DNA from: Planctomycetota bacterium
GTDB taxonomy: Bacteria > Planctomycetota > UBA1135 > UBA2386
DNA: 64,000 nucleotides
Assembly: GCA_046290465.1 (NCBI GenBank)
Contig: JBKAGP010000001.1
Span: 4,000,001-4,064,000, forward strand
Direction: 5' to 3'
In this document: positions 6,808-53,167 of the stretch, one piece after another
Layout: each line of letters begins with the position of its first letter
Position numbering within the stretch: the stretch's first letter is position 1
The notes under the pieces: model-generated
The model's database searches: none
What the model was told of the DNA's origin: nothing
What the model saw: only the letters and a program-made list of their open reading frames with translations
Translations under genes and position numbers: made by a program

Positions 6808-7181
6808 GTTGTTCCTCGTGGTCGTGAAGCCGGGAGATCCGGCGTGCTGACATGACCGCTCTGTTCGCCGACGACATCAAGTTGAGTTGCCAAGGATTCG
6901 GCGAGCCTCGCCAGGAATCTCCGACGGATCCCCCATCGACTTCCGGATCCGCCAGGCCAAACGTGACCGCCTCCCCTTGGCCTGGCTGGACGAGGGCCGG
7001 CCGGTCGACAGCGGCGCCAGCGCGGCCGCGGCGCCTGCTCGTGCCGCCAACGCTCGCCGAAGGGCCGACGGCCGGAGTGTGCAACGACCTTGGTCACAGC
7101 CTGAAACTGTTTGGCAAAACGCGGCACGATCGTCAAACGAAGGATGCTGTCACATCGCCCGACATGTGGTGCGGTTGGGCG
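6675..7181 (+). repeat. Direct repeat copy 1 (unit right-end module plus att left arm, no tRNA core)
   Basis: Near-identical to 11222-11740 over most of its length; includes GAGTGTGCAACGACCTTGGTCACAGCCTGA at 7075. Confidence 0.9.
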
Positions 7182-7571
7182 CAATCGGCACGACGGGGAA
7201 CGGCCGAAACGGGCGATTGGACGCACCTATTGGCCTGCTGCCGTCGGTGCTGGTGCAAGCGCAGGGACTCGCTTGCTGTCTCGTGGCGAGGTTGGCCGAC
7301 TTCCCGGGCACATCCCGCTGCCGCCTATTGAGCGGCCTTGCGCTCTGTAGCGGATCGATGCCACGGGGGCGGGGTAGTCCTCGTCCCCGAAGTGTTACGG
7401 GACACAGCAGCGGCGCGTGGCAGCGGCGGCGTGGTCAACGAGATGCACACGACTCAAGACCGGCGTGCTGCCCGCTGCCGAGGCGATCTGCCTGCCGAAC
7501 CGATTCCGGTAGCAGGCGGGGAATAGACCGAGGTGCGGTGCTTGCTGGGGAGCTAACATCGTGTTATCTTG

Positions 7572-7886
7572 ATGGCAGTGCTCGACAGCCACCAACAGTT
7601 CGCCATCCTAGGATTGCTGCGGTCCGGCGAGGTTCCGGGGCGACAGGTCCGGGAGCACCTGCAGAGGGAGGGGTTCCGATTCTCGCGACCGGCCTTCTAC
7701 GCGCTGATGAAGCGCATGGAGACGGCGGGCTACGTGCGCGGTAGCTACCGCCAAAAGGAAGTCGACGGCGTTGCGCTGCGCGAACGCTGGTACGAGATCA
7801 TCGCGGATGGCGCCGTGGCGTGGGAGGAGACCTGGGCCTTCTACATGCGCCAGGAGAAGCTGCGTCCAGCCAGAGGTGGATCGTGA
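7572..7886 (+). CDS. PadR-family winged-helix regulator
   Basis: ILGLL...G..VREHL...AFYALMKRMETAGYV...RWYEII.DG pattern. Confidence 0.85.
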   Translation: MAVLDSHQQFAILGLLRSGEVPGRQVREHLQREGFRFSRPAFYALMKRMETAGYVRGSYRQKEVDGVALRERWYEIIADGAVAWEETWAFYMRQEKLRPARGGS

Positions 7887-8902
7887 TTCGGCGTGCGCTC
7901 GACTTTGCTGTGGCGCTCGTGGGCCTCGTGCTACTTGCGCCCTGGTTCGTGACCTGTGGGGTCCTCGTCTGGCTGACGAGCGGCCCGATCCTCATTGCCG
8001 AAGTGCGAATCGGGCGGCACGGGCGGCCGTTCCGGGTTTGGAAGTTTCGCACGATGTGGACTGGCGACGAGCGGCGATCCATGCTCTTGCGAGACCGCCA
8101 GGCCGATGGGCCTGCCTTCAAGATGACGAGCGATCCGCGGATCACGCCGGTTGGGCGATTTCTGCGCAAGTTCTGTCTCGACGAGCTGCCTCTCTTGTTC
8201 AGCGTGCTGCGTGGCGACATGACGCTCGTCGGGCCGGCTCCGGTTCCCTTTGCCTGGCGCGATGCCGAATGGCATAGCGACGAAGAACGCGAATGGCTGC
8301 GCGTGCGCGCAACCGCAAAGCCCGGTCTGACCTGTCGCTGGGCGATCTACGGGAGTGGCCGGATGCCGTTCCGGGACTGGGTGCGGATAGACCTCGAGGA
8401 TGCGGCCCGCTCGCTGCCGTGGCGGGACGTGGCCCTGCTTGCCCATGCGTTCGCGCGATTCCTCGTAATGCTTTCTGCCGCGACGGTCGCCGGGGTCACC
8501 CTGATGGTTGCCGTCCCGTTCAAGTTCTTCTGGGGCCTTGTAGTCGTGAGCGCCGGCACCCTCGGCGGCATGCTGCGGTCTCGCAGTGGCGCGGGTGAAG
8601 AACAGGAGGTGCGCGGTGTCCGTGGGGCGCGAACGACCGCGGCTCGATACCGTCGAGTTGCGAGCCTGTTCGCGTTTGTGCTGCCACGGAAGGTGCGCGA
8701 GGACCTGTTCGAGCCCTCGCTCGAGGACCTGCTGCATGACTGGGCCAGCCATCGGCGCACGCATCGCGGCGTGTGGGCGTGGCGCTGGCTGCACGCCGTC
8801 TTCGTGCTGAAACTGGCCTGGCTCACGATCGAGTCGGTGCGCGCTGCGACCTGGAGTCTGGTGGTAGCCTACCTGACGCCCTGGCGGCGCCCGCGCAGCT
8901 GA
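7883..8902 (+). CDS. Bacterial sugar transferase (phosphoglycosyl transferase) with a membrane/helical C-terminal extension
   Basis: RRALDF...RIGRHGRPFRVWKFRTM...DPRITPVGRFLRKFCLDELP...GDMTLVGP...KPGLT; GTG start overlaps the padR stop. Confidence 0.85.
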   Translation: MIRRALDFAVALVGLVLLAPWFVTCGVLVWLTSGPILIAEVRIGRHGRPFRVWKFRTMWTGDERRSMLLRDRQADGPAFKMTSDPRITPVGRFLRKFCLDELPLLFSVLRGDMTLVGPAPVPFAWRDAEWHSDEEREWLRVRATAKPGLTCRWAIYGSGRMPFRDWVRIDLEDAARSLPWRDVALLAHAFARFLVMLSAATVAGVTLMVAVPFKFFWGLVVVSAGTLGGMLRSRSGAGEEQEVRGVRGARTTAARYRRVASLFAFVLPRKVREDLFEPSLEDLLHDWASHRRTHRGVWAWRWLHAVFVLKLAWLTIESVRAATWSLVVAYLTPWRRPRS

Positions 8903-9004
8903 TCACAAGCGCGACGGCGCAGTCCCCTCGCTGTCCCGGCGATGCGATCCGCGATGCTGCGGCCGGGGACGCATCATGCGCATCTCTGCACACCGCGGGC
9001 TGGC

Positions 9005-9723
9005 CGTCATGCCCGGAAACTGAGCCGTGCCATCCGAAAAGTCGGCGGATGCGACTAAGCACTGGCATCCTCGTCGTGTCCGAAGAGTCGGCCGACGCGA
9101 TTCGGGCGTGAATCGGTCGCTTGGATGTCGTCGATGAGCAGTTGGTCGCAGCCTGCGTGGGCCGAGTAGACAGACGGGTAGCGCGATTTAGTGTTGTTTG
9201 CCAGCCTGTCGCCGAGAACCTGGGCCGCCAGGCCGCGCGTCGATAGCTGCGAAGTCGTGGTGTCCGTAAACTCGGTCGGCGCTGATTCGGCCAGAATCCC
9301 GTGCTCCGATGGCGCGGATGGCCGATTCGCGCGAGCCTGGTTCGGCCGAGCTTCCAGATCGGTAGCCGGGGGCGAGGTCACCATCCGGGTTGTCCCGGAG
9401 GACCGAGGCCGTCAGGCCGAGTTGCGGTAGCTGCGAAGCGGTCCGCCAAGGCGCTAATCAGCGACGGCCACGGCACTGGCTGGCTGTTCGCACTTCCGTG
9501 GCGTGACCAGGTAGTTGCCCGGGCCCTGGTGCGGGCGATCGGCGTTGTAGTGTGCGACGTATTCGCTGAGTGCGCCGCAGGTGGCTCTCGCCGGAAACGA
9601 CCATCCAACTCAGGCACTCCCGCTTGACGCTCAGCACCCAGCGTTCGGCGAATGCGCCTCACGAACGACGCTGCGTTGTCGGCAACCATGAGCCGCGGCC
9701 CAGGAGAAAAGCGTCGACCTGGT
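9005..9723 (-). mobile_element. Stack of rve-element end tips and transposase C-terminal remnants
   Basis: Tips at 9005, 9027, 9073 and 9257; remnants encode EYVAHYNADRPHQG, AFAERWVLSVKRECLS and RLGGPLRSYR. Confidence 0.8.
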
Positions 9724-9769
9724 CCATGAGTTTGCGGTCCGCACGCGCCTTGAAGCTCGCCTTGTGATC

Positions 9770-10278
9770 GCGATCGGGCAAGACGGCAACTCCGAGCTGG
9801 CGCTCCCGCCTGCGATCGTGGCCCCGAACCTCCTCGCGGGATGGTAAAAACGGTCAGTGAGAGCTTGCGGACGCGACGCCGACGGCACGCGACGCGACCA
9901 CCTGGAGGCGGTCGGCGCCGCGCAGCGGCTCATCGTAGACGACCTCGGCGTGCGCAATCTGCCGGCGACAGCCTTCGAGGACCTGCTGCTCGCGGTGATC
10001 ATGCGCCGCTACGAGCGGGGGCAGCACGACCGTCACGTCAAACCGTCCCGTCGAACCTTGGGGCAAGCTGCTCGGCGACACCCCGGCCATTTCTGCGATG
10101 CTCGATCGGCTTCTCCATCACTCGAACGTCCTCAAGTGCGACCCGTGAATCTGGAGAACCAGGACTGACAAGAAGGGCGGCTCTACTCTGTGGTCTGGCC
10201 CCCGCGCCACTAACACCAAACGCTACACCCAACACGTCCACGTCGTCTGACTGGCCAATTTTAAACCGTTCCCCGAGG
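9770..10278 (+). pseudogene. istB: IS21-family istB (ATPase helper) remnant with probable IS end
   Basis: LIVDDLGVRNLPATAFEDLL..IMRRYER, then in another frame VTSNRPVEPWGKLLGDTPAISAMLDRLLHH; frameshifted with a stop; IS21-like end TGGCCAATTTTAAACCGTTCCCCGAGG near 10251-10277. Confidence 0.8.
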
Positions 10279-11198: not shown

Positions 11199-11354
11199 TC
11201 AAAGAACGCCCCACCAGGTTTGGTCGGCTTCGAGGCAGTAGATGCAACAAAGGGCGCTGTCAGTGATCCCGGCAAGCGGGGCTTGCGTCTCGCTGGCGAG
11301 AGCGTCCCAGGCCGGGGTTCCGATGGTCTCGTTCTGCGTTTCGTTCGTGGTCAT
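11199..11354 (-). pseudogene. Truncated second copy of the 6418-6807 gene
   Basis: Translates MTTNETQNETIGTPAWDALASETQAPLAGITDSALCCIYCLEAD, then diverges and stops. Confidence 0.8.
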
Positions 11355-11740
11355 GTTGTTCCTCGTGGTCGTGAAGCCGGGAGATCCGGCGTGCTGACAT
11401 GACCGCTCTGTTCGCCGACGACATCAAGTTGAGTTGCCGCGGATTCGGCGAGCCTCGCCAGGAATCTCCGACGGATCCCCCATCGGGCTCCGGATCCGCC
11501 CGGGCGGACGCGACTGCCTCCCCTTGGCCTGGCTGGACGAGGGCCGGCCGGTCGACAGCGGCGCCAGCGCGGCCGCGGCGCCTGCTCGTGCCGCCAACGC
11601 TCGCCGAAGGGCCGACGGCCGGAGTGTGCAACGGAGTGTGCAACGACCTCGGTCACAGCCTGACACTGTCTGGCACAGCGTGGCACGATCGCCGGCCGTG
11701 GATGCTGCCACATCGCCCGGCACGTGGCACGGTTAGGCAC
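11222..11740 (+). repeat. Direct repeat copy 2
   Basis: Matches 6675-7181, offset about 4547 bp. Confidence 0.9.
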
Positions 11741-11809
11741 ATCCTGACGCAGCGTGGCACAACCTGGCACAACCCCGCCCTGCGTCTTCGAGTCCTGCAG
11801 GGCCTACCA
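11622..11809 (+). other. att site: left arm (2x GAGTGTGCAAC, TGGCAC repeats) plus tRNA 3'-end core at 11787-11809
   Basis: TTCGAGTCCTGCAGGGCCTACCA reads as T-loop, 3' T-stem, 3' acceptor strand, discriminator A and CCA; identical at 33493 and 45538; 57 bp from the integrase stop. Confidence 0.9.
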
Positions 11810-11866: not shown

Positions 11867-13162
11867 TCAGCCACGGTTCTGGCCCTCAGCCTTCTGCTCT
11901 TCGGCCGGACTGGGAATGACTGTGTCGGCCTGTGAAAGACTGGGGGTAGCTGTCGGCTTGGCTGTCAGCGCCCGGTCGAGCAGGTCTGCCAGCAGGTCCT
12001 GACTCACGGTGAGGTCGCGATCATCGAGCTTCGTGTAGAAGTCGATCGTGATCCGCACATCGGTGTGGCGCAGAAGGCGACTCGCAGCCTGGATCGGCAC
12101 TTGCGCACGCGAGAGCGAGGTCGCGTAGGTCGTGCGCAAGGCATGAAGATCGAACTCCCGATCTTCTGGGATCGAGATGCCGGCTCGGGCGGCATCTTCG
12201 CGGACTCGCACAGCCACTCGGTCTGGCATCCGAACAACGTGACTCTGTGGCCTCGGAAGACGACCCGTGCGTTCGTGGACACGCGCGAGATACTGCCGGA
12301 GACGCTCAACCGTGGATGGGATGAGCGGCAGCTCGCCACCCTCACCGTTCTTCGTCGCTTCTGGGGGCAGGATGACGCGCGGGTTCTCGTCCAGGCGCAG
12401 ATGCGACCAGCGAAGCGCAGCGATCTCGGCCCTCCTCAGGCCGTTGGTTGCAGCGAGCGCGTAGATCACCGCCCGTGCCTCACCCTCGAATCGCAGGTCA
12501 TCGAGCTTCGACATCGGTGCGTTCGGATGAGTGGCTAGGTATGCCTCGGCCGGCTTCGTGGCGGTAGCGGCTAGTAGCTTGGGAATGTCCGCGGGGTCGA
12601 GCGCAAAGCGGTTACGCGTTCGATCCGCTCTCCGACAGACCTTGGTCAGGGTCTGCATTGGGTTCTTCTTGAGCCTTCCGGTGTCGAACAGCCACTTTCC
12701 GAACTGTCGAGCAAGCGCCGCGTAGTGGTCGCGAGTGCTCACCGAAGAACCGTCGGCCAGCAACTTGGCAAGAACCTCCTGCACACGGTCAAGGCGGTAG
12801 TCAGACAGCTTCTTCGCGTCCATCCGCGCGAGCAGCTTCGTCAAGCGGAACCGGAGGCCGCTCAGGTAGCGGGCCGCGCAGTTCTTCGCCTGGATCGACT
12901 TGAGGAAGGCGGCGGCGTGTTGCCCAAGCGACTCTCGGTGATGGTCGGTGGCCTCGTCGATGATGCCAGCCTTGCGGCGCTCTACTTCGCGGATCTTCTG
13001 AGCGAGGGCGGCCTCGGCCACACTCTTGTCCTTCGAGATCCTGGCTGTTCGACGAACTCCATTCTCGTCGTGCCACTGGATCGTGTAGCGCGGTTCAAGT
13101 GAGCCGTCCTCACGTCTGCGCTTGTAAACCGAGCCGTTCGCTCGGGATCGTTGTCGTGCCAT
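11867..13162 (-). CDS. int: Tyrosine integrase (phage/genomic-island type)
   Basis: N-terminal arm-binding-like GSVYKR...YTIQW; catalytic motifs GLRRAEI, TKNG, DLHALRTT, LLRHTD, FYT. Confidence 0.95.
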   Translation of the reverse strand: MARQRSRANGSVYKRRREDGSLEPRYTIQWHDENGVRRTARISKDKSVAEAALAQKIREVERRKAGIIDEATDHHRESLGQHAAAFLKSIQAKNCAARYLSGLRFRLTKLLARMDAKKLSDYRLDRVQEVLAKLLADGSSVSTRDHYAALARQFGKWLFDTGRLKKNPMQTLTKVCRRADRTRNRFALDPADIPKLLAATATKPAEAYLATHPNAPMSKLDDLRFEGEARAVIYALAATNGLRRAEIAALRWSHLRLDENPRVILPPEATKNGEGGELPLIPSTVERLRQYLARVHERTGRLPRPQSHVVRMPDRVAVRVREDAARAGISIPEDREFDLHALRTTYATSLSRAQVPIQAASRLLRHTDVRITIDFYTKLDDRDLTVSQDLLADLLDRALTAKPTATPSLSQADTVIPSPAEEQKAEGQNRG

Positions 13163-14244: not shown

Positions 14245-14635
14245 TGCGCCGGTCGTTCCAACATCAACTTTCGGGCGCAGGCTGTTTCGATCCTGAGGTA
14301 GATCGCTGGCACCTCTTCCGATCTTGGACGAAGCACCACCAGTCCGCCGCAAGCGCTCGCGCAGTTGACCTGAATCCTGGTGTGAGGAACCCAGCGTCGT
14401 GGGATCGGTCGAGCCGCGTAGAGGCGAGCAGGTCGGCGTCGTAGGTGTCGTGCGACCTGTTCTGTCGGTCAGAGGCACGCGAGGTTCCATCGTGAAGCAC
14501 CGTGGTCGTGGGGTGTCTTGCTTCTTCGAAGGTGACGATCGCAAGGCAGGCTTGCTAGTCGCGGCAGGCCCTGGACTTGCTTATCGCGATCCCGATCATG
14601 ACTGGGAAGCAACCCGACGCGGGAGCGCGAGACAC

Positions 14636-15829
14636 ATGCTGCGAACGCCACTCGACCAGATTGAGGAGGAGACCATCCGGCACTTCGTCGCGAAGACGAA
14701 ACTGCCTGAGACGGCGAGCCTCGACTACAAGCGGGACTACGACCTTCGCGACTCGAAAGGCAAGAAGGGACTACTCGCCGACATCTGCGCGTTTGCGAAC
14801 AACGGCGGCGGTCACATCCTGGTCGGCGTGGACGAACAGCGCGACGCGACTGGTGCGAAAACTGGCATGCCGGTTGATCAACCGAGCGGTGCTAGGTGGT
14901 TTGACCAGTCTGTTGCAGAGAACCTCATCCACGCCTCGATCGAACCTCGCATCGGGAACTTCGTGCGGATTCAGGCGGTTCAGGGGTCTTGGGCAGACGG
15001 ACCGGTGTATGTGATCAAGGTGGATCGGACGTGGAACCCGCCGCACTCCGTGACGTCGAGCGAACGTCGGACCTTCTACCGGCGATCGGGTGCGAATAGC
15101 GAACCGATGGACATGAACCAGATCCGCGATGCATTCTCGGCTGCTGCGACGTTGGCCGACCGGGCACGCGCGTTCCATCGCGAACGCGTGCAGCTAGTGC
15201 TGAGTGGCAAGACGACGTTCCCTTTGGTGCAGGAGAGGGGTAGGTCGATCGTTCATGTCTTGCCACTGAGCTTCTTCGCGTCTGGCGAACGGTTACCCTT
15301 GGACAATGTCCCGCTGCTTTGCCCTAGCAGCGGCGCCGGGGGCTCCTGGAGTCCTGTTCCCAACTTCGATGGCCGAATTGCGTATGCAGGGCGTCCCGAG
15401 GCCACTTCTTATCTTCAGGTGTTCCGCCATGGTGCGGTGGAGGGTGTCAACACGGACCTCACCTACGAGGAGCGAGATCGTCTCGGCTTTAGAGTGCGGC
15501 AGGTCGAGCTTGACGTGCTCACGACCGTCGAGCAGGCCCAGAAGTTCTTCGATAGCCAACCTGACCTCGGGCCTCCGTGCCTCGTCATGCTCTCGGTTGT
15601 GGGTATCGAAGGCACCTTCATTCCACCGCCAAATCCTGGCTACGACACGAGCCACATCCACACGATCGAGCTGGACCACTTAGGAGTCCTCGACGTTCAG
15701 CTCGACGACCTTGCAGGCGAGGTTGAGCAGGTATTGCGACCGACCTTCGACGTGCTCTGGCAGTCCAGCGGTTGGCCGAAGAGCCTGAGCTTTGACGATT
15801 CCGGGCGATTCACGACTCCGAGGCAGTGA
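14636..15829 (+). CDS. Schlafen/AlbA_2-domain protein
   Basis: ETASLDYKRD...LLADICAFANNGGGHILVGVDE...FYRRSGANSEPMDMNQIRDAF. Confidence 0.9.
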   Translation: MLRTPLDQIEEETIRHFVAKTKLPETASLDYKRDYDLRDSKGKKGLLADICAFANNGGGHILVGVDEQRDATGAKTGMPVDQPSGARWFDQSVAENLIHASIEPRIGNFVRIQAVQGSWADGPVYVIKVDRTWNPPHSVTSSERRTFYRRSGANSEPMDMNQIRDAFSAAATLADRARAFHRERVQLVLSGKTTFPLVQERGRSIVHVLPLSFFASGERLPLDNVPLLCPSSGAGGSWSPVPNFDGRIAYAGRPEATSYLQVFRHGAVEGVNTDLTYEERDRLGFRVRQVELDVLTTVEQAQKFFDSQPDLGPPCLVMLSVVGIEGTFIPPPNPGYDTSHIHTIELDHLGVLDVQLDDLAGEVEQVLRPTFDVLWQSSGWPKSLSFDDSGRFTTPRQ

Positions 15830-15970
15830 TTCTGGTTCACAAGATCGGAACGCGAGTGAGGTGAACCCTACGGAGTTGGCGGATAGGAGGGGCTCGATGG
15901 AGAACGCGACGAAGGACCAGCGCCCGAGGTCTTCATAGTCAGTCGGGTCCCAATCCCACTGGGAGTCCGA

Positions 15971-18827: not shown

Positions 18828-18839
18828 GCCGATGCCCGT

Positions 18840-42656: not shown

Positions 42657-42663
42657 GCCGAGC

Positions 42664-43314
42664 TTAGGCGAGAAACTCATCAACACTGCCGCGCTTCATC
42701 GCCATCAACTTCTTGGAGATCCTGGCGATGGCGCGGTTGCACCGGACACGCGCCGAATCCTCCTTCATGTCGACGGCCGTGCCGATCGTCGCGAAGTCCA
42801 GCTCGTCGTAGATGCGCATGATCACGATGCGCTGATCCGTCGGCGGCAACGTCGCGATCGCCAAGCGAACGGCGGCTTCGCGCTCGTTGCCACGAACCGC
42901 CTCGGTCGGCGTCGTATCGTCGGCGGCGCACATGTGCAGCCTTACCGATGTGCCGCTGGGCAACGGCTTCTCACGGGCAACCTGGCGCCGCATCCGCGCA
43001 AACCAACGATGTTGACCAGCGATAACGCCATCGACGATCTTCACCAACAGGCCACGCAACTGTTCGCGCGTCTCGACCTCGAACGGCGGCGAGTAGCGCA
43101 TGAACTCGACAACGGCATCCTGCAGGACATCGCCGGTATCCGCCTTGCTCCGAACCTGGCGGCCGAGCCGCCCGTGCGCGTAGCGGCGCAGATACTCCAT
43201 GTTGCTATCGAGTATCTGACCGAGCGCGCCATGATCCCGTTCTTGAAACCACCGGCGCAACAGCGCGGGCAGCGCGGCCTTGTCTCGATCGGCGTCTTCA
43301 GGTGATTCGTGCAC
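42664..43314 (-). CDS. ECF sigma-70 factor
   Basis: YLRRYAHGRLG...DTGDVLQDA (region 2); LPPTDQRIVIMRIYDELDFATIG...ARVRCNRA (region 4). Confidence 0.9.
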   Translation of the reverse strand: MHESPEDADRDKAALPALLRRWFQERDHGALGQILDSNMEYLRRYAHGRLGRQVRSKADTGDVLQDAVVEFMRYSPPFEVETREQLRGLLVKIVDGVIAGQHRWFARMRRQVAREKPLPSGTSVRLHMCAADDTTPTEAVRGNEREAAVRLAIATLPPTDQRIVIMRIYDELDFATIGTAVDMKEDSARVRCNRAIARISKKLMAMKRGSVDEFLA

Positions 43315-43452
43315 AGCTCACCACCTCGTGATCACTGGACCAAGCGAAGTGGCAAGCCATCATATAGCATCTGCCACGGTTGACATGAGTCGGCGAGTAA
43401 TACCGGCAAACCCTTGAGCCAGCAGCAGGGCGCCCGCCGAGACTCCGAGCGC

Positions 43453-44771
43453 GTCCTGTCCGGAAAGTCGGCCGACGCTGATTCGGCCAGAATCCCGAGC
43501 TCAGATGCCGCCGATGGCCGATTCGCGATCTCTGATTCCGGCCGAGCAGGCGGACTGGTGGCGGGGATCGAGGTCGCCAACCAGTCTGTCGCGAAGCAGT
43601 AGGGCCGTCAGGCCACGCGTCGATAGCTGCGAAGCAGCCCGCCGAGACGCTCGTCGGCGACGACCTCGCCATCTCTCGGCGGTTCACTGTCGCCTGCCGT
43701 GACCAGGCGGTTGTCGAGCCCCTGGTGCGGTCGGTCCTGGTTGTAGTGGTCGACGTAGCTCTGGAGAGCGCGTCGCAGGTGCGCCTCGCCGAGCAGGATC
43801 AGCTTGCTCAGGCACTCGCGCTTGACGCTCTGCACCCATCGCTCGGCGAAGGCGTTCATGTTCGGCGCCTGGACAGCGGTTCGCACAACCTGGACACCGG
43901 CAGCGTCGAGGATGCCGACGAACTGCTTCGTGAACAGCGTGTCGTTGTCGAGGATCAGGTATCGCTGCCCGCGCTGGAAGCCATCGACGTGGTCGGTCAG
44001 GTTGCGCGCGACCTGCGCCATGAAGCCCGCGTTCGGCTTGGTCGTCACGCCGGCGATCTCGACGCGGCGTGTCGCGTGCTGGATGGCAAGCAGCACGTAG
44101 TGGGTGACGAGCCCGCGCCTGGTCCATAAGTCGACCGTGAAGAAGTCCATGCCGCAGATGACGTCAGCGTGCGCCTTCAAGAAGGTCCGCCAACTGGTCG
44201 GCCGATCCGGGCTCGGCTTGATGCTGTTGTCCTTGAGGGTGGCCGCGATGGTGGTTCGGCCGACGCGGTGCCCGACCTTCTTCAGCTCGCCCTGGATACG
44301 CAGGTAGCCCCAGCTCGCGTTCTCGGTGGCCATGCGCACGATCAGCTCGCGGATCGCCTTCATGATGCCTGGTCGGCCAACGCGACCCTTGTGCGGGTAG
44401 GTGTGGTGCGCAGCGATCAGCCGGCGGTGCCATCTCAGGATCGTGTCGGGCGTGACGATCGTCGCGACGCGGTCGAGCATGCGGCGGCCGAGCGGCTTGC
44501 CCTTGGCCGCGAGACGTCGGCGTTGGTCGTCGGTCAGGCGGAGTCGCTTCCTGCCGAGCTGTTCCTTCAGCACGCGGTTCTCTTCGGCCAGGTAGTCGAT
44601 GACCTGCGATTGCTGCCTGTTGACGAAGCCGGCGAACGCGGCGAGTAGGAACCTGAGCGGGAAGGTGGTGCTCATCAGCCTGTATCGGCGCTCGAGTGCG
44701 GGGCTTCGTTCCGAAGCCGGCGCACTGCCATCACCGAGCCCGTCGCATCACGCCTGGACTCCGCATGCCTG
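43453..44771 (-). mobile_element. IS-like element with an integrase-core (rve) DDE transposase, apparently intact
   Basis: Homologous to 47925-49252 from the tip GTCCTGTCCGGAAAGTCGGCCGAC to about 100 bp upstream of the start codon. Confidence 0.85.
43608..44675 (-). CDS. Integrase-core-domain transposase (IS3/IS481-like DDE)
   Basis: IVTPDTILRWHR, ENASWGYLRIQGEL, CGMDFFTV, LILDND, NAFAERWVQSVKRECL, HYNQDRPHQG. Confidence 0.92.
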   Translation of the reverse strand: MSTTFPLRFLLAAFAGFVNRQQSQVIDYLAEENRVLKEQLGRKRLRLTDDQRRRLAAKGKPLGRRMLDRVATIVTPDTILRWHRRLIAAHHTYPHKGRVGRPGIMKAIRELIVRMATENASWGYLRIQGELKKVGHRVGRTTIAATLKDNSIKPSPDRPTSWRTFLKAHADVICGMDFFTVDLWTRRGLVTHYVLLAIQHATRRVEIAGVTTKPNAGFMAQVARNLTDHVDGFQRGQRYLILDNDTLFTKQFVGILDAAGVQVVRTAVQAPNMNAFAERWVQSVKRECLSKLILLGEAHLRRALQSYVDHYNQDRPHQGLDNRLVTAGDSEPPRDGEVVADERLGGLLRSYRRVA

Positions 44772-44801
44772 TCGGCATCAGCCCCCTTTCGATTCGTCAG
44801 C

Positions 44802-45100
44802 TCACTCTCTTCGCTTGCGCCAGTAGCCGGGGCGTCGGTGCAGGTGCGCGACTGCGAGTACGAGGACTCGATCGACGCGAAGGGCGTAGATCAGCGCGAA
44901 TGGGAATCTGCGGAGAAGCAGCGCCGGGTGCCCGTGACGTCCTCGGGCCAGCGATGAGGCGCCTCTTGCAGGACGGCGAACCCTCGCTCCAGCTCGGCGA
45001 CGAAGGCGTCAGCGGCTCGCGGGCTACGTTCTGCATACCACGCGCGCGCCGCGGCCGCCTCCTCGACGGCCTCGGGGTGGAACGACAGTTCGACGCCCAC
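44802..45100 (-). pseudogene. RelE/ParE-family toxin, frameshifted
   Basis: LSFHPEAVEEAAAARAWY...; a 1-nt loss near 44919 moves LLRRFPFALIY...VLAVAHLHRRPGYWRKR into another frame. Confidence 0.85.
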
Positions 45101-45101
45101 G

Positions 45102-45320
45102 CTAGCCCGAGATCCGGCGACGAGCCTCGTCGAGGTCGACGGCGTTCACTCTGCCAGTGTCGAGGTCGGTCAGGCGTCGCTGGATCTCGGCAGACCAGGC
45201 GGCTTCAGCGTCAGCGTCTACCGCGCTCTCGAGGCTGCGCAACAGGCTGCCCGCGAGTGCCGCGCAGGCCTCGGCAGGTAGCGACATGGCGCGACGCAGG
45301 AGGTCCTCGGAGTCGTTCAT
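45102..45320 (-). CDS. Addiction-module antitoxin component
   Basis: LLRRAMSLP...ALAGSLLRSL...AEAAWSAEIQRR...GRV; directly upstream of the toxin. Confidence 0.85.
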   Translation of the reverse strand: MNDSEDLLRRAMSLPAEACAALAGSLLRSLESAVDADAEAAWSAEIQRRLTDLDTGRVNAVDLDEARRRISG

Positions 45321-45392
45321 GCGGATTAGCATACCTTGCTGGGGGCGTTGGTGCTGCGAGCCGGTTGCGGCGGCGGGTGGCGTTTCGGCCGC

Positions 45393-45667
45393 GAGTGTGC
45401 AACGGAGTGTGCAACGACCTTGGTCACAGCCTGGCACAACGTGGCACGATCGCTGGCGCCAGATGGTGCCGCATCGCCCGACACGTGGCACGGTTAGGCA
45501 CATCCTGACACAGCGTGGCACAACGCCGCCCTGCGTCTTCGAGTCCTGCAGGGCCTACCACTCGGATCGTGCGCGGATGGCGCGTAGTTGCCGATTCGCG
45601 GGGGTCGGAGTACTCGGGGAGGGCGAGTGTGCAATGGCCTCGGTCACAACGTGGCACGGCCTGGCAC
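45393..45667 (+). other. Complete attP-like junction: left arm, core at 45538-45560, right arm
   Basis: Left part matches 11622-11786 and right part matches 33516-33656; core identical. Confidence 0.9.
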
Positions 45668-45679
45668 GGATGGGGGAGC

Positions 45680-45830
45680 TCGGGTTGCCGCGCCCGCGCA
45701 CGGGCGGTGGCGTCCGTGCACCGGTTCGACTCGGCGCTACGGCCGAATCTGCACTACCACGTGGTGTGGTTGGACGGGGCGTATCCGTGGCAGCCGCGGC
45801 ATGGCGTTGTCACCTGCCACGAGTGCGAAG
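45680..45830 (+). pseudogene. IS91-family (HUH/Y2) transposase fragment
   Basis: AVASVHRFDSALRPNLHYHVVWLDGAY matches the QRFGSALN.N.HFH...LDGVY HUH motif. Confidence 0.7.
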
Positions 45831-46149
45831 GGCTCGAGCAACGGCGGGGGCTACGGCTGCAACCGGCGCCCGTAGGGTCGTCTCGGTCGTCGGCGGCCGC
45901 ATGCTTGTTACAAATGGTGCGCCGCGCCCGCCTGGCGCGTCCGGGAGGTTAGGTCGCTCCGCGGCTGAAGGGTCGCAAGTCGACGTGCTAGGGGAAGGTA
46001 GGCACCGAATGGCCGCCCCGATGAGGAGGCGACCGCCACCTCAATCGACGTTCCCTGGCACGGATTCCATGCTAAGCACTTTCGACTTGGCCCCCTTGGC
46101 AGGTCGTTGGTAGATCGCCTCCCTACACCGCCGAACCGAGGAACGCCTG

Positions 46150-46908
46150 ATGGAACATCCGAACTCGAAGGCAATGGCAAAGCTGCGGCTACTTGCGCCG
46201 TTGCTCCAGAAGCACGCGAAGCGCCTCTGCAAGCTCGTGCGCCCGGACTTCCCACCCGCCCAACGCCCGCAGCCGCAGACGCTCATCCAGGTCGCCGAGG
46301 CCGAGATCGAGTCGTCGAGCACGGAACCCGGGCCGCTTGCGATCATGCACGTGTCGTGGAATGCGATGCGCAGGTACATCCGCGAGCAACAGTTCCAGGC
46401 CATGGAGCGTGATCTCCACTCGTATGCGGTCAGGCTGGCCCACGCAATCGCCGTAGTCGGCACGCCGGCGCGCACCCGCGCCGAAACGGCACTCAACCAG
46501 GCCGGCTACGAGTACATCCGCAACCAGAATGCCCTGCTCGAACGCGTTCCGGCGAAGGCGTGGTGCCAGAGATTGATCGAGTGGCGGTTGAAGGACGGTG
46601 ATCGCGCTGATCGCCGCAACGCCGTGATCGTCGTCGATTCGCCAGCGACGTTGGCCGAGAGCAAGGAGTCCGTCCTCGACACGGTCGCGACCCGTGAGTT
46701 GGCGCAGTTCGTGGCCGCCTCGGTCAAGAAGCTTGGGTCGCCCTACGACTTGATTTTCCAGGCGTTGACGTGCGACGGCCTCAAGCAGGCCGAGGTCGCG
46801 GAGAAACTCGACATGGAGCTGTGGCGTGTGAAGGCATGCAAGGGATTACTCGACACCGCGATCCTGCAAGCTATCGAGAGCTACTCAAAGGGAGGCGAAG
46901 ATGAGTAA
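46150..46908 (+). CDS. Divergent sigma-70-like protein (region 4 HTH at C-terminus)
   Basis: VKKLGSPYDLIFQALTCDGLKQAEVAEKLDM..WRVK; stop overlaps the next gene. Confidence 0.6.
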   Translation: MEHPNSKAMAKLRLLAPLLQKHAKRLCKLVRPDFPPAQRPQPQTLIQVAEAEIESSSTEPGPLAIMHVSWNAMRRYIREQQFQAMERDLHSYAVRLAHAIAVVGTPARTRAETALNQAGYEYIRNQNALLERVPAKAWCQRLIEWRLKDGDRADRRNAVIVVDSPATLAESKESVLDTVATRELAQFVAASVKKLGSPYDLIFQALTCDGLKQAEVAEKLDMELWRVKACKGLLDTAILQAIESYSKGGEDE

Positions 46909-47887
46909 CGCGAAGAAGCGAACGACCGTCCCGCTCAAGGCGCTGCCAGCAATTTCGCTGGCAGCCAAGCTGCTGGACGAAGATCGCAGCAAGTGCCCCA
47001 GCATTGATTCGATCGGCATCGTCGCCTACTCGGCCCTCGGAGTGGGCGGTAGCCTGTCGGAAGCTGACCAGCACGTGTTCGCAACCGTCAAAGCACACCT
47101 GTTCGAGTGCGCGCGGTGTGCCGCGGACTACCGATACCTGTTGCGCGATATCTCGCGCGACGAGCGCGACGACAAGCAGAAGAACTGCATCCAGATGAGT
47201 TTTGACCTGTCGGATGCGCTGGTGTCGTCGCAGGAGACGGTCCCGCCACTGCGCAATGCGATCGTCGCGGCCGAGGTGTCAAAGACCATCGGCACCGTCA
47301 AGCACGGCAAGTTGATCTACGCGCCACCGACGCCGGCCGAATTGGTTGAGAACGTCCTAGCCGTCGAGGCGAACAGCATGAGGAAGGCCGACAGCTACCG
47401 CTCCATATCGCGCATAAACTTCCACCGGAGCATCAAGTGCCTCGCGGGCCATCCCGGCGAAGGTCCGTTCTTCGATGCGCTGGTCGGAGCGTTGTCGCGC
47501 GGAGCCAAGGCTCGGCGCATCTTCCCGCTTCCGATAGGACATTCGCAACAGGTGCTGGACGCTCTTGTGGGCAACGGCGACTTGCCGGAGGGCTACGAGT
47601 TCTTGCGTGCCCATCATCGGTTGTCGGAGGAGTTCCCGGGGTACGAGATCCGGTTCCTGACGACGGACGCCGAACAGGTCAACTTCGGTATGTTCGAGGA
47701 TGGTGCGACGGGCACCCGTCGGTGCTTCGAGCCCTACTACGAGGACGGCCGCACTCGCGGATTGACGTGCGTTCTGTCGGCCGACAACTACGTCTCAATG
47801 TGGGACTGCGTCTGGGACGAGGCTATCTCGGCTCATGACGCGCAGTTCGAAGCCGGGATGGCCCCCGACGACACCAGCGCGCCGTAG
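46901..47887 (+). CDS. Zinc-finger (HxxxCxxC) anti-sigma-like protein with soluble C-terminal domain
   Basis: GGAGG RBS; VKAHLFECARCAADY; no TM segment. Confidence 0.6.
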   Translation: MSNAKKRTTVPLKALPAISLAAKLLDEDRSKCPSIDSIGIVAYSALGVGGSLSEADQHVFATVKAHLFECARCAADYRYLLRDISRDERDDKQKNCIQMSFDLSDALVSSQETVPPLRNAIVAAEVSKTIGTVKHGKLIYAPPTPAELVENVLAVEANSMRKADSYRSISRINFHRSIKCLAGHPGEGPFFDALVGALSRGAKARRIFPLPIGHSQQVLDALVGNGDLPEGYEFLRAHHRLSEEFPGYEIRFLTTDAEQVNFGMFEDGATGTRRCFEPYYEDGRTRGLTCVLSADNYVSMWDCVWDEAISAHDAQFEAGMAPDDTSAP

Positions 47888-47924
47888 GAACGGGCGCTGG
47901 CGCAGATTGGTGGGCTCGAAGCGC

Positions 47925-49252
47925 GTGGTATCCGGAAACTTGGCCGACGCTGATTTGGCCAGAAATTCTGGCTCGGATCGCTTCGATGAGCTATTCGCGA
48001 CGGTTGGCTTCGGCCGAGTTGGCAGACTGGTGCTCGTGAACGATGTCGGTAACCAGCCAACCAGCCTGTCACGAAGCAGCAGGGCCGTCAGGCCGCGCGT
48101 CGATAGCTGCGAAGCAGCCCGCCGAGACGCTCGTCGGCGACGAGCTCGCCATCTCTCGGCGGTTCGCTGTCGCCTGTCGTGACCAGCCGGTTGCCGAGGC
48201 CCTGATGCGGGCGCTCCGCGTTGTAGTAGTCGACGTAGTTTGACAGGGCCCGCCGGAGGTGTTGCTCTCCGAACAGAATCATCCTGCTGAGGCACTCTCG
48301 CTTGACGCTCTGCACCCACCGCTCGGCAAACGAGTTCATGTTCGGAGCCTGGATGGCGGTGCGCATGACGTTGACGCCGGCCGCGGCGAGGATGCTGTCG
48401 AACTGCCTCGTGAACGACGGCGCGTTGTCGACCACCAGGAACCGCTGCCCATGCAGGAACCCGTCGACCTGATCGGTGAGGTTGCGCGCTACCTGCGCCA
48501 TGAAGCTCGCGTTCGGGTGCGTGGTGACGCCGCTGATCCCGACCCGCCGTGTCGCGTGCTGGATGGCGAGCAGCACGTTGTGCGTGACGAGTCCGCGCTT
48601 GGTTCAAACGTCGACCGTGAAGAAGTCCATGCCGCAGATCGCATCGGCATGCGCCTTCAGGAACGTGCGCCAGCTCGTCGGCCGGTCCGGGCTTGGCTGG
48701 ATGCCGCTGTCTTTGAGCGTGGTCGCGATGGTCGTCTTGCCAACGCGGTGGCCGAGCTTCTTGAGCTCGCCCTGGATGCGCAGGTAGCCCCAGCTCGCGT
48801 TCTCGGTGGACATGCGGACGATCAGCTCGCGGATCGCCTTCATGATGCCGGGGCGGCCAACTCGTCCCTTGTGCGGGTAGGTGTGGTGCGCCGCGATCAG
48901 CCGGCGGTGCCACCTCAGGATCGTGTCGGGGGTGACGATGGTTGCGAAGCTGTTGAGGATGTGGCGGCCCAACGGCTTGCCCTTGGCCGCGAGGCGGCGG
49001 CGCTGGTCGTCGGTCAGGCGGAGTCGCTTCCTGCCGAGCTGTTCCTTCAGCACGTGGTTCTATTCGGCCAGGTAGTCGATGACCTGCGCCTGCTGCCTGT
49101 TGACGAAGCCGGCGAACGCGGCGAGCAGGAACCTGAGCGGGAAGGCGGTGCTCATCAGCCTGTATCGACGCTCGAGTGCCAGGCGGTCTCCCGAGGCCGG
49201 CGCACCGCCGTCATCGAGCCCGTCGCATCACGTCTGGAATACGACTGCCTGT
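47925..49252 (-). mobile_element. Second rve transposase element, transposase (48088-49155) inactivated
   Basis: Paralogue of 43608-44675 with in-frame stops (GAG to TAG near 49061; TGG to TGA at 48604). Confidence 0.9.
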
Positions 49253-49272
49253 GTATACGTCCTCGGTGATGA

Positions 49273-49596
49273 CTAATCAGCGCCGGGATCATCGTCGAGT
49301 TCTCGGGAGAGATCGCGAGCGCCGTGGATCAGTCGGGCTACGCGGATGCCGTCCTCCACCGGCTCGTATACGATGATGAATGTGCGGAGCAGGACGAAGT
49401 AACGGAAGGACCGTCCAGGGGGATCGATCTCCGGCTGGCTCGTGCCGAGCTCTGGCGACTCAGCGAGTCGTCTTAGGGCCTGTTCGAATGCGTTTCGTAG
49501 TCGACGCGCTTGCGTGACGCCGAAGCGGCGGACGGTGTAGTCGGTAATCTGTCGGCGGTCGTCTTGGCTTGCGAGCGAGAGCTCGATGTGGCTCAC
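49273..49596 (-). CDS. parE: ParE/RelE-family toxin
   Basis: [29 protein letters not shown]...LAESPELG...IIVYE...[16 protein letters not shown] overlap with the antitoxin. Confidence 0.88.
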
Positions 49597-49886
49597 GGCG
49601 CGTCCTTTTGCTGGGCTTCCAGCTCGGCGATTTCCCGGTCCCAGTCCGCAAAGAAGGTATCTGCGTCGACCGTTTCGCCTCGGTCTAGTTGGTCCGCGCC
49701 TTCCTGCACGAGGGCGCGAACGCGTTCGAGTTCGGCCTGGCGGCGGCGCTGCTGATCTTCCAGAAGTCGCAGGCCCTCCCGGACGACCTCGCTCGCGGAC
49801 TGGTATCGGCCCGAGGCCACGCAGTCGGCTAAGAACTCTGCCTGTCGTGGAGTGAACGAGACGCTGATGTTCTCTCGCTGGGCCAT
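49593..49886 (-). CDS. parD: ParD-family RHH antitoxin
   Basis: ISVSFTP...[21 protein letters not shown]. Confidence 0.92.
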
Positions 49887-50059
49887 GACGGGAGTGTAGG
49901 ACAATGTCGCACACCGTCAAGTCGGTCCGGTGCTGCGTTGTCCGAGAGCTTCATGCCATGCGGCACTCCCACAGCCGATCCGCCTCGACGTCGCGGCTCT
50001 GCTCGATCTTCTCGACGCCGCCGCCGTTGAGAGCCTCGGGGTCGAGGTCGGTGGCCTTC

Positions 50060-50450
50060 CGCGCTCCAGCTTCAACGGTCGCTCACCGGCGGGCCCATAG
50101 ACCTCTAGGATTGTTGCAGGAAGGCCGATACCGCCCTCTTCAATGTAAGCAGCGCGCACGGCTCGACAGCCCAACTCACGCGCCGCATAACTGGGAAGCA
50201 CACCTACGTCTGTCCCCCTAGGAGCATTATTCACAAGCAGCGTCCAACCGCCAACACTCATCCACGCATGTCGACTCAGAACCGCAGCCGGATTTAGCGC
50301 ATCCAAAACGTCAACGAAAGAGCGCCACCTCGCCTCGACGACTCGCCACCCGAGGCCTTCAGCAAGCCACTCGGCAACCGCAGCATGAGCGCATTCAAAG
50401 AAACCGACCTCTTGCGTCAGCTCTCCACCGCTTCCGCTGGGCCAACTCAC
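50060..50450 (-). pseudogene. Truncated hypothetical gene in a lower-GC patch
   Basis: Globular-looking ~130 aa (…NNAPRGTDVGVLPSYAARELGCRAVR…ILEVYGP…) that then runs into unrelated sequence. Confidence 0.4.
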
Positions 50451-50702
50451 GGAACGATCCTCAGCACAAAAACACCCCTCGGGACATTTGCCAGAATCCT
50501 ATACTCGCGCTCCGCTTCTGACGCGCCGGATATTAGCTTTGATGGACTCTCCGCGTGCTCGCGCCGCCGGAAGTCGACGACGCGGTCGGCCGGACTCCGC
50601 CTGCCAATGCTGGGCTAAATCCGCTACCAATGCACCCAGTCATGGTTGTCACATATGCTCCCGCTTGCACGGCCCGCGAGGAGCTCGGGAGAAGGCGCAA
50701 GA

Positions 50703-51011
50703 TCACTGCTGCCAGAGAACCTCCCGTGTTCCATCAGGCCGCCCCAATTCGGCAACGACTCCACGGTCAGCGCACTTCCGTTTACACACCTGTTGCAAAC
50801 AGTCCAACACTCGGCTGTGGACCTCGTCATTAGGTGGCATCTCAATCTCAAGGACCACTTCATCCGGCCCAGTTTCAATGCCACAGATATCAGCCCCAAG
50901 ATCGAACAGCGCGTCATCGACGTCATGACCGACAGACTCCACTAAAGCGTCGACAACCTCTACGCTGGCACCGTAGCCGGGAAGAGGAAATCTGACAAAC
51001 AGCATGTGCAT
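50703..51011 (-). CDS. Small acidic hypothetical protein
   Basis: About 102 aa, acidic, lower-GC codon usage. Confidence 0.45.
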   Translation of the reverse strand: MHMLFVRFPLPGYGASVEVVDALVESVGHDVDDALFDLGADICGIETGPDEVVLEIEMPPNDEVHSRVLDCLQQVCKRKCADRGVVAELGRPDGTREVLWQQ

Positions 51012-51099
51012 GGCAACCACCATCGCGCGCCCGCCACGACGTGTCCACGACTCTTGCCAGCAACGGTGTCGAGCGGTTGATCGGGGCGAAGTGACACCA

Positions 51100-51290
51100 T
51101 GTTGCCCGGATGCCAACCGACGTGAATCGGTCGCTTCGGACTTATCGATGACCAGCTGGCCGCAGCCGGCTTGGGCGGAGTAGGTAGACCGATAGCGCGT
51201 TCCCCGCTGGTACGCGGCCTGCAGCTGTCACGCTGTCGGTGCCCCCGCCACTACCGGGCCCGTCGCATTTCGCCTGGAATGCGATGCTCG
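51100..51290 (-). mobile_element. MITE-like internal-deletion derivative of the rve element
   Basis: 51121-51200 resembles the trailer at 9107-9186; 51237-51290 (GCCCGTCGCATTTCGCCTGGAAT) resembles the upstream segment at 44738 and 49218; no transposase between them. Confidence 0.65.
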
Positions 51291-51359
51291 GCTGAACCCT
51301 GGTCGGCGAGACTCCCGGCCGCCAAGGCGCAGACGAGCCTCCGGACACCACGCGGTCGC

Positions 51360-52685
51360 TCAGAGGGCCTCGACGCGCGGATTGCTGAGCCAGACCACGG
51401 ATTGGTTGACGGCGACGTAGAGGCGTTGCCGCAGTAGTTGATGCTGGATGTCCGCTTTGACGACCGGCTTGTCGTCGATGTGGACGACGAGCTCCTCGTC
51501 GACGGCAATGGTCACGTCGAACGGCTTGCCGGCTGGCGTGTTGATCTCGGCATCTGCCAGGTCGACCCACTTGCCGCCTCGCCATTCGGAGATCATGCAG
51601 CGGTTCGGCGCGAAGATTACGCCCAGGATCTCTTGTCGCGGTAGCTCGAACAGGAAGCGGAACGACTTTCGGCCCTCGATGTCCGCCACCTCAACGCGTG
51701 CTTTGACCGCGTAGCCGCCTTCCGGGAGTTTGCCGCCAAACTCGATCTGGCCGGGGCTCTTGTCGTTGCCGGCCAGGTAGATGCGGTCGCCCTGCTTGCC
51801 GGCGACGTCGAAGGTCAGCAACCAGTCGGGTTTGCTGGACGCGACCTTGCCGGCCATGGTGGCCTCGGTCTTGCTCCAGTCCTTGCCGAGCAGGCCTTCG
51901 AGCAACGCCTTGCGGTTGTCGGCGATGCCCTCCCTCTTCTTCGGCTTGCGCTGCTTCGTCAGCAGCCTCTTGAGGCTCGATTTCCTGCTGTCGGCCAGCA
52001 TGATCGAGCACCACGAGGCGGCCTCGAGCGCGAAGTCGTATTGGCTCGCATCTACGTATGGACCTGCCGCAAGCACGTGCGGCAAAAGCTGGGTTCATCA
52101 ACCGGTCTCAGTACGCGCCTTGAGGATCAGGCTGCGCTCGTCGAAGAGCGGGTCGACGCCCCAGGCACGCTTGGGATTCTCGAGTTCGTCGAGGACGGCG
52201 AACGAGACGACATCGGCAAGCCACGGGTCACCGCGACCGACGCCATGTTCGAGGGCGACGAGCTTGGCCGCCATGCGGATGACGTCATGGCGCACGGACG
52301 CCGGCGCACCGAGCACCGCAAAGCTCGCGTCGCCAAGCTTCGGCACGGCGACGTAGGCGACGTTGCTCTCGTGGTCGCAGAACGCCTGCACCGGAAACGC
52401 ATACGGGCTGCTCTTCTTCTCGACCGTGCGGTAGGCCGCTGCATCGGCATAGAGCTCGACGCGCGGCCACTTCTTGGGCCGCTTCACCTTCTTGAGCAGG
52501 GCGTTGAGCTTCTCGGTTGCCTGCCAGCAACCGTCGATCACCTGCTCGGCGACCGCGGGCTTCATCTCGCCCGGGTGCAGCGTGAGCTGGATCTGCTTAT
52601 CGCCGCGTATCAGAGGCTGCGCCTGGGCACTCGCCGCAGCGGCGGCGAGGACCGCGCTGATGATGACTCGAGATGATGTTCCCAT
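51360..52685 (-). pseudogene. Secreted protein gene split into two ORFs (52098-52685 and 51360-52085)
   Basis: Signal peptide in the first ORF; both halves are in the same frame, separated by TGA-TGA within an atypical ~65-bp segment. Confidence 0.55.
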
Positions 52686-52957
52686 GGCAAGACGTTAGCC
52701 CCCTGTGTGTCGAAAGCGAACTTCGCACCGAGGGGCGTGTCACCTTCGCGGTCGGCGGCTCGTTCCACTTCTCGCTTTCGCACCGGCGTGCTGCATAGCG
52801 GCTCCGTTGGCAGAACGGCGAACTGGGATGGCTCCGATCTGACGACCCTCGAAAGCTGCGCAGCAGCCGGTTGGCGGCTCACCGACGATGATAGGCAGCC
52901 AACACTCGCAGCGCGGCACGAGCGTTTGCCGACAACGGGTAGGGCCCTCCTGCTGCC

Positions 52958-53167
52958 GAGTATGCAACGGCCTTGGTCCCAACCTGACTCCGCCCGACAC
53001 AACCCTGCCCTGCGCCTTCGAACCCTGCAGAGCCCACTAGTCGGATCGTGCGCGAACGGCGTGTCGTCGCGGATTCGCGGGAGTTGATCTCGTCGCCAGG
53101 GCGAGTGTGCAATCGCCTCGGTCACAACGTGGCACCGCCTGGCGCAGGTCGGCACGGCCGGGCACAA
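52958..53167 (+). other. Degenerate attP-like junction (core 53017-53039, 18/23 match)
   Basis: GAGTATGCAAC...CCCTGCGCC-TTCGAACCCTGCAGAGCCCACTA-GTCGGATCGTGCGCG...GAGTGTGCAAT..CTCGGTCACAACGTGGCAC. Confidence 0.85.

Follow-up and report, generated by a model that had tools for sequence, protein, structure and literature searches.

The 64,000-nucleotide stretch analysed here (the window) comprises positions 4,000,001-4,064,000 of a 6.59-Mb single contig (G000:C1) from an uncultured and probably planctomycete lineage, and it carries a series of composite repeats that are the attachment sites of one tyrosine-integrase element family. We propose that the surrounding island grew by tandem accretion, through integration by enzymes of the Int1 family at the T loop of a tRNA gene, and that internal deletion then produced units like cis-mobilizable elements (CIMEs) rather than an integron; the probability of this reading is put at about 0.72. 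A preliminary description had reported co-oriented motifs at five places in the window. They were recovered at all five, all on the forward strand and in one orientation, and the pattern of an arm site with GGTCACA matched the window seven times and each of 100 shuffled sequences not once. Exact copies of GAGTGTGCAA number 11 in the genome, all within 3,961,918-4,053,112, and profile searches of the genome with both arms returned no site below E 0.5 outside this region. The repeated sites are thus restricted to one 91-kb island behind a tRNA gene with the anticodon CAT, tRNA(CAT), which lies 38 kb upstream of the window at genome positions 3,961,777-3,961,853. Its last 23 nt are the core of the repeated sites, so the intact upstream tRNA anticipated by the preliminary description exists, and the view of the sites as attP-like junctions formed by tandem integration at a tRNA 3' end is supported. 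The genome has three CAT tRNAs, and we take this one, by identity rules, to be probably tRNA-Ile2. Behind the tRNA, the island consists of element E1 (50 kb), element X (21.7 kb), the units E2 (12 kb) and E3 (7.5 kb), and an orphan left arm. The GC content is 0.62-0.65 for the units in the window up to position 53016 and 0.68-0.71, near host-like, beyond.

The attachment sites have a strict architecture. The cores at 11787-11809 (+, E1/X junction), 33493-33515 (+, X/E2 junction), and 45538-45560 (+, E2/E3, the sole complete attP-like junction) are exact copies of the last 23 nt of tRNA(CAT), and the core at 53017-53039 (+) has 5 mismatches in 23, two of them within the 7-bp T-loop overlap. In every core, the T loop is the exact point from which the sequence agrees with that of the tRNA; this loop is among the crossover subsites given in the relevant part of the Islander paper (PMC4383910). 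The right (A) arm has a pair of 10-bp sites at a 12-bp interval (-165 and -153 relative to the core), and after them come boxes that repeat at exactly 10-bp pitch. In the left (B) arm, the same site pair lies to the right of the core, at +87 and +99. This geometry (right -165/-153; left +86/87 and +98/99) is fixed in 8/8 units with a full-length Int1 gene.

Within this genome, the wear of the sites grows with distance from the tRNA. The right arm of E1 (11622-11786, +) is canonical, with sites at -165 and -153 and boxes at 10-bp pitch. The left end of E2 (33516-33656, +) comprises a spacer, arm sites at +87 and +99, and boxes, and, counting the core, matches the left end of E1 at 97% identity over 142 bp; the right arm of E2 (45393-45537, +) has its sites at -145 and -133, which is 20 bp (two turns) below the family norm and yet in phase. 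E3 retains a single arm site in its left end (45561-45667, +) and a collapsed, mutated right arm (52958-53016, +) with one site containing 1 mismatch and no clean boxes, and its overlap is altered. The lone left end that follows (53040-53167, +) has one arm site. The most damaged junction is indeed the one farthest from the tRNA, as had been pointed out before, but distance cannot serve as a rule for age, because a unit in the related genome G061 appears to have entered at a distal right end. A second core-like inverted repeat, with T-stem-like arms around 6-7 differing bases, occurs 20-40 bp inside many left ends (window 33670-33691; genome ~3,962,010; loci L026-L028, L031, and L044), and in L019 this repeat is an inverted copy of the core. 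It may be an extra Int site or a relic. Searches of the window against Rfam returned no match.

The enzyme most likely to act on these sites is encoded by E1. This element measures 49,979 bp from core to core, begins with a left end directly behind the tRNA, and ends at window position 11809. Its genes encode Int1, an 84-aa helix-turn-helix (HTH) protein, a 100-aa protein, an 847-aa Prim-Pol/PriCT_2 primase, a XerC-like recombinase, a DUF5681 protein, a ParB-methylase, an IS21 insertion sequence (IS), and cargo. Int1 is a tyrosine integrase of 405 aa (genome 3,965,674-3,966,888) whose gene points with its 3' end towards the tRNA. A cognate integrase with the arm site inside its 3' region had been predicted upstream; the intact gene is there, but the arm lies 3.7 kb from its 3' end. 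Int1 carries PF00589 and a SAM-like domain, and the catalytic R, K, HxxR, H, and Y residues are invariant in 12/12 aligned homologues. The best fold match of its predicted model is full-length lambda integrase. The adjoining 84-aa protein matches HTH_17 in 10/10 homologues and a PHROG excisionase family at E 8e-4, and its best fold matches, both weak, are the excisionase RdfS (E 0.016) and BldC. E1 therefore has an integrase, an excisionase-like gene, and a primase module, as in satellites of the phage-inducible chromosomal island (PICI) and tycheposon type. Neither a capsid gene nor a confirmed terminase gene was found in these elements, the DUF5681 protein being the only candidate, and no relaxase or type IV secretion system family was detected among the E1 and X open reading frames (ORFs) scanned.

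On this basis, the island would be the product of successive site-specific integrations into the T loop of the tRNA(CAT) gene, most likely catalysed by the lambda-type Int1 of an integrative-element family of 6-50 kb. The family plan runs from the left arm through int, xis, a small gene, the primase-polymerase, the XerC-like gene, DUF5681, ParB/methylase, and cargo to the right arm. The N-terminal domain of Int1 would bind the paired GAGTGTGCAA sites, and the enzyme would cut around the 7-bp T-loop overlap. The 84-aa protein, a putative winged HTH (wHTH) excisionase, would occupy the boxes at 10-bp pitch. This assignment of arm pairs and boxes is inferred; in the part of PMC11963761 concerned, an integrase N-terminal domain binds arm sites and BldC is placed at one protomer per DNA turn. 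One foreign element, X, would have been inserted via the same core, and internal deletions would then have stripped the backbone from E2 and E3 while attL and attR were kept. Since the backbone lies within ~25 kb of the left end, one deletion can leave the left end together with right-hand cargo and the right end. E3, the orphan arm at 53040, and the arm at 7075 would be fixed relics. Comparable routes have been described: section 2.3 of PMC5704250 defines CIMEs and their origin by decay, the part of PMC3146451 on Dehalococcoides reports 15 ssrA islands without an integration module, and the portion of the tycheposon preprint (10.1101/2020.12.28.424599) concerned describes stacked elements with remnants. 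The microcin H47 island, according to a section of PMC3191183, still excises though it is recombinase-less.

The same family was found in relatives. The composite site matched 21/61 genomes including G000, many via the tRNA core only. The exact arm-pair pattern was present at 61 distinct loci of the species collection, of which 51 were titled Planctomycetota or Brocadiaceae, 7 were from unnamed bacteria, and 3 were on short contigs of other groups, which makes a planctomycete the probable host. No arm lies behind 9/23 distinct tRNA(CAT) sites among the fetched loci, a sample biased towards occupied sites, which indicates that the arm travels with the element. Int1 matched 10/61 genomes at E<=1e-40, two of them distantly (39-40%), and gave no match in the arm-rich genomes G001, G002, and G009, which are fragmented and 89-94% complete, so that this does not amount to absence. 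Homologues of Int1 (62-75%) reside at cores of tRNA(CAT), Val-TAC, Val-CAC, Arg-TCG, and Arg-CCT, and the arm word is unchanged in all. The Int1 tree is mostly unresolved with respect to the tRNA target (the CAT label needs 4 changes and 8/15 inner branches are open), so no order of target switches is claimed. Among viral contigs, the Int1 search returned no locus, and 4 arm-pair matches came without the composite site.

Complete arrays in two relatives provide the closest parallels. G061 carries three Int1-bearing units in tandem (43.7, 20.3, and 36.5 kb) with the same junction. In G062, two Int1-bearing units (44.5 and 37.7 kb) are followed by a homologue of X (22.2 kb, 55%) and a 2.8-kb integrase-less unit, which is the order of the present island; a comparison of cassette order, proposed in the preliminary description, thus gave agreement down to the X homologue and the terminal integrase-less unit. 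Eighteen units could be delimited in 10 genomes: 8 contain a full Int1 gene, 2 only the C-terminal half of it, and 8 none. Four units with a missing or foreign end, two X-type elements, and the 7075 segment were left out of this count, in one unit that was counted a contig end interrupts the left core, and the integrase-less share is inflated by the easier assembly of short units. Complete arms were seen in 8/8 autonomous and 6/10 non-autonomous units, and damaged arms in 0/8 and 4/10, respectively. Core-less arms and fused right/left arms are present in G001, G002, and G013.

Several local peculiarities of relatives were also recorded. The C-terminal 441 bp of Int1 are triplicated in tandem at G062:C1:4,706,939-4,709,150, and a second tRNA(CAT)-like copy stands just after the integrase 3' end at G063:C1:206,099-206,600. 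Locus L137 (G065:C61:6869-6945) is a tRNA(CAT) with a tRNA-Val(TAC)-like T stem, and the element cores of that genome share the variant. L086, a 2.9-kb contig from a bin of another phylum, contains a near copy of the right arm and core of the present genome, with an IS in the left-end spacer, and is probably misbinned.

The comparison with integrons, by contrast, does not hold, although the array had been described as an integron-like platform. Integron attC sites fold as single-strand hairpins. The junction at 45393-45667 forms no such hairpin and folds no better than shuffled sequences (z +0.68 and +1.86). The integrases of the island score 26-77 bits or have no match against the integron-integrase model, for which the cut-off is 265. 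Judged from relatives, the units appear as deletion grades of an autonomous element. The one integron integrase of this genome (G000:C1:2,142,651-2,143,592 (-), TIGR02249, 421 bits) lies 1.8 Mb from the island.

E2 (33493-45560, +; 12,068 bp) has both ends intact, and E3 (45538-53039, +; 7,502 bp) has a damaged right end. Neither has a site-specific recombinase: PF00589 has no match in 33516-60000, and recombination genes are limited to IS transposases. The earlier statement that the units contain no recombinase therefore stands for E2 and E3 but fails for X, which encodes two tyrosine recombinases inside the window. E2 carries an IS1380 transposase gene (34337-35650, +) ~0.7 kb from its left arm and cargo at 37870-43314, encoding a Ser/Thr kinase-formylglycine-generating enzyme (FGE) protein (+), an ELWxxDGT repeat protein (+), and an extracytoplasmic function (ECF)-type sigma factor (-). 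An IS481-like module follows (43448-44772, -; gene 43608-44675, rve_3), and then a ParE-like toxin in two frames with a TIGR02574-type antitoxin at the right end (44802-45314, -). The cargo of E3 consists of a sigma-70-like gene pair (46150-47887), an IS481-like module with an interrupted gene (47920-49252), and ParDE (49273-49904). The cargo had been called unrelated; in fact, E2 and E3 share the 1.3-kb IS481-like module (84.6% identity), of which remnants also occur at 9072-9820, and each has a ParE-type toxin-antitoxin pair. The genome has 7 occurrences of this 'integrase core domain' module and its 183-bp end, none of them outside the island (window 5052-5233, 9072-9438, 43448-44772, 47920-49252, and 51117-51284; genome 3,979,827), and in relatives they often adjoin arms.

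The ends of the two units differ in what they would permit. With attL and attR as the mark of a CIME, E2 qualifies through exact cores and two-site arms in phase, and E3 does so only partly. Tyrosine integrases require matching overlaps. As the E3 overlap differs at 2 positions of the 7 bp and its arm has collapsed, E3 alone should not excise. E2 is probably still excisable, alone or with its neighbours, and it is plausible that Int1 and Xis of E1 would act on it in trans. Contigs from four public runs over 33301-53300 showed neither the joint 45560->33516 nor 53039->45561, which is uninformative because contigs drop rare forms. Two joints in run X1 were dismissed as cross-mapping of the 7075-9438 segment onto arm and IS repeats, and one in run X3 was dismissed with 21 letters only on one side. 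The sequence of run X4 is nearly the same as that of E3 over most of this unit and differs at 19/350 positions over 44670-45018, whereas the E2 cargo has almost no cover, with no contig across the gap, so that this was not counted as absence.

A further cassette had been proposed to start at 53017. The orphan left end at 53040-53167 has no matching right end anywhere in the genome, and the GC content behind it (0.68-0.70 versus 0.62-0.65) is near host-like. A 29-bp match at genome 2,529,992 was considered as the lost right end and rejected, being coding-like sequence without arms. In 40 relatives, the DNA behind the orphan end did not recur as a block; it is either old cargo or chromosome.

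The supposed 4.5-kb cassette beginning at 7075 was likewise not upheld. Its left border is a single worn arm without a core, and this arm is part of a 520-bp direct duplication (6675-7183 and 11222-11741, 88.5% identity) inside E1. The first copy (6675-7183, +) contains the one worn arm site at 7075-7098. The segment 7075-11621 is thus internal to E1 and not bounded by att sites, and it may be the rest of a former unit; IS481-like remnants within it (9072-9820, -) comprise two 184-bp end repeats and a gene fragment. To the left are a 129-aa backbone gene (6418-6807, -), which usually adjoins the right arm in this element family, and a small HTH backbone gene (5305-5667, -) with homologues near the right end of relatives' elements. 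Elsewhere in E1, the block G000:C1:3,974,306-3,979,632 is 95-99.7% identical to 3,931,874-3,937,336 (inverted, RHS-repeat region), and the IS21 (3,991,886-3,994,566) has near-identical copies at 3.01 and 1.62 Mb.

X, an integrative element unrelated to this family, makes use of the same core. It occupies 11810-33492 (21.7 kb) between the halves of the split junction, has no family arms of its own, and carries defence-like cargo. Its two tyrosine recombinases are a 431-aa integrase (11867-13162, -), 30% identical to Int1 with its 3' end towards core 1, and a XerC-like protein of 322 aa (24834-25802, +). The defence-like cluster at 14399-27376 includes Schlafen/AlbA_2, PifA-like KAP NTPase, STAND NTPase, and DUF4062 genes. 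Short GCTGTC-type repeats near both ends (11949-11969, 33333-33341, and 33410-33418) are candidate X arm sites; two of them lie 12 bp apart within the 3' end of the X integrase gene. A homologue of X occupies the same kind of position in G062. X may have split an existing junction or may have arrived between E2 and E1, and the two courses are indistinguishable.

Some observations on accretion with internal deletion weigh against it. No trace of backbone genes was found in E2 or E3 at tblastn E<1e-3, so deletion in place is read from relatives, where truncated intermediates occur, and not from scars. Six of the 10 non-autonomous units retain in-phase two-site arms, which also fits continued use as mobile cassettes. 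A XerC-like gene belongs to the backbone of 6/8 autonomous units and may have a role, and the Int1 model is of low confidence in its N-terminal domain, where the predicted local distance difference test (pLDDT) score is 52-63. The integrase-less units could alternatively be standing hitch-hiking cassettes, moved in trans by co-resident Int1/Xis and landing at any core that shares the T-loop overlap, which would make the system integron-like by means of attP-type sites. We regard this as a doubtful general account, though it can hold for some units beside decay. It draws on an 11.1-kb unit without Int1 at tRNA-Arg in G061, whose left core is of the tRNA(CAT) type and whose right core is of the Arg type. 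Over the first 150 bp after its core, this unit agrees fully (and over 507 bp at 96%) with an integrase-less unit of the tRNA(CAT) array on another contig, and all three Int1 genes of that genome are within the CAT array. Between the metagenomic loci L107 and L109, identity is 98.8% over 505 bp; both combine the ParDE end of E3 with an E1-like right arm, but L107 ends in a Val-type core and L109 in a CAT-type one. Also consistent with this account are solitary integrase-less or truncated units at tRNA-Arg and tRNA-Val and the toxin-antitoxin pairs of E2 and E3, and in part of PMC11963761, attP-only mini-elements integrate with a helper integrase in Mesorhizobium. However, none of the integrase-less units turned up complete in a second context. 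The two G061 units have nothing in common beyond the left end and a 2.4-kb repeat and could both have lost Int1 after arrival, and L107 and L109 likewise are no proof of integrase-less movement. Searches of 90 family and 14 genus genomes, which are incomplete metagenome-assembled genomes, did not recover the E2 and E3 cargo as a unit, and both the damaged right end of E3 and the truncated intermediates also speak against standing cassettes. The broader idea, in which one Int1 clade with one arm word serves five tRNA types via the shared T loop and integrase-less units hop between arrays in trans as a genome-wide, attP-based cassette-exchange network, is equally tentative.

Recombination of other kinds is considerably less probable. 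Homologous or slippage recombination with segmental duplication of related element ends could have produced junctions without an integrase at each; the 7075 arm does lie in a 520-bp duplication, units of 10 and 12 bp have been gained and lost by arms, and some arms are fused (G002). Against this improbable origin, complete junctions swap partners exactly at the 7-bp T-loop overlap with constant arm distances, and the sequences of neighbouring units diverge just beyond the arms. It is hardly credible that the motif is a miniature inverted-repeat transposable element (MITE), a repetitive extragenic palindromic (REP)-type repeat, or an assembly artefact. Contigs of public runs do break at repeats, and the unit order is independently bridged at the last junction only, but the motif is absent outside the island, its copies differ from each other, and the same architecture recurs in other genomes. 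A scattered MITE/REP had been named as the finding that would overturn the attachment-site view; it was rejected, as all copies are in one island, element-borne, and built of direct repeats.

The borders of the island have features of their own. One of these involves window 61535-63807 and genome 3,960,739-3,961,755. In many relatives the metallophosphoesterase and MurJ genes are just upstream of the neighbour gene of the tRNA, and their displacement to 100 kb downstream here points to an inversion around the island. An 83-bp repeat array of a genome-wide REP-like family (G000:C1:3,960,298-3,960,756) is present ~1 kb upstream of the tRNA.

Tandem tRNA islands with integrase-less units are already known as a general phenomenon, and what is new here is the little-studied lineage. 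No publication on this element family was found in titles and abstract starts, a search with most subscription papers outside its coverage. Attachment sites, an integrase, and a likely excisionase are now mapped to the base for a tRNA-targeting family in this uncultured, probably planctomycete group. The island bears on whether CIME-type units are dead ends or are re-used in trans, and E2, with intact ends, and E3, with a damaged end, form a built-in positive and negative pair. If the cross-tRNA network were true, such arrays would work like an integron rather than merely accumulate decayed elements. With its defined ~280-bp attP and a conserved tRNA as target, such an integrase could also be put to use in the genetic manipulation of these bacteria.

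Among known systems, the closest resemblance is to CIMEs and the tandem accretion of ICESt1/ICESt3-related elements; in the part of PMC5704250 concerned, CIMEs are units that have no integration genes but still possess attL and attR, and at a tRNA 3' end they form tandems with integrase-bearing elements, related or unrelated. In contrast to these, the ORFs scanned in the helper here include no relaxase or conjugation gene, so conjugative cis-mobilisation is not indicated. The Dehalococcoides ssrA islands (PMC3146451) are similar in that several tandem islands, many without an integration module, stand within ~100 kb behind one structural RNA gene. The sections of that paper on these islands give a tmRNA target and a ccrB-homologue integrase and describe no paired arm sites, whereas a tyrosine integrase, tRNA T-loop cores, and five tRNA targets are found here. 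Tycheposons and PICI-like elements, as portrayed in part of 10.1101/2020.12.28.424599, share the integrase-excisionase-primase module at tRNA genes, partial tRNA copies between elements, and remnants deeper in the island. They belong to another host group, and the elements described here reach 20-50 kb and have a second XerC-like gene and ParB/methylase.

Integrons and attC-site clusters that come without an integron integrase (CALINs), to judge from part of PMC11389934, also present a row of recombinase-less cargo units beside a helper enzyme. Here there are no attC-type hairpins and no integron integrase in the island, and the units are 7-12 kb, multi-gene, and coded on both strands. At the level of the site itself, the best counterpart is the attP of heterobivalent tyrosine integrases, such as lambda and the IntS/RdfS system of ICEMlSymR7A (part of PMC11963761), with a core flanked by 10-bp arm sites, a length of ~280 bp, and a wHTH directionality factor. 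The present family departs from that model in that both arms have the same layout, an arm pair and then boxes, in the same orientation, and in that one integrase clade with one arm word is found at five tRNA types.

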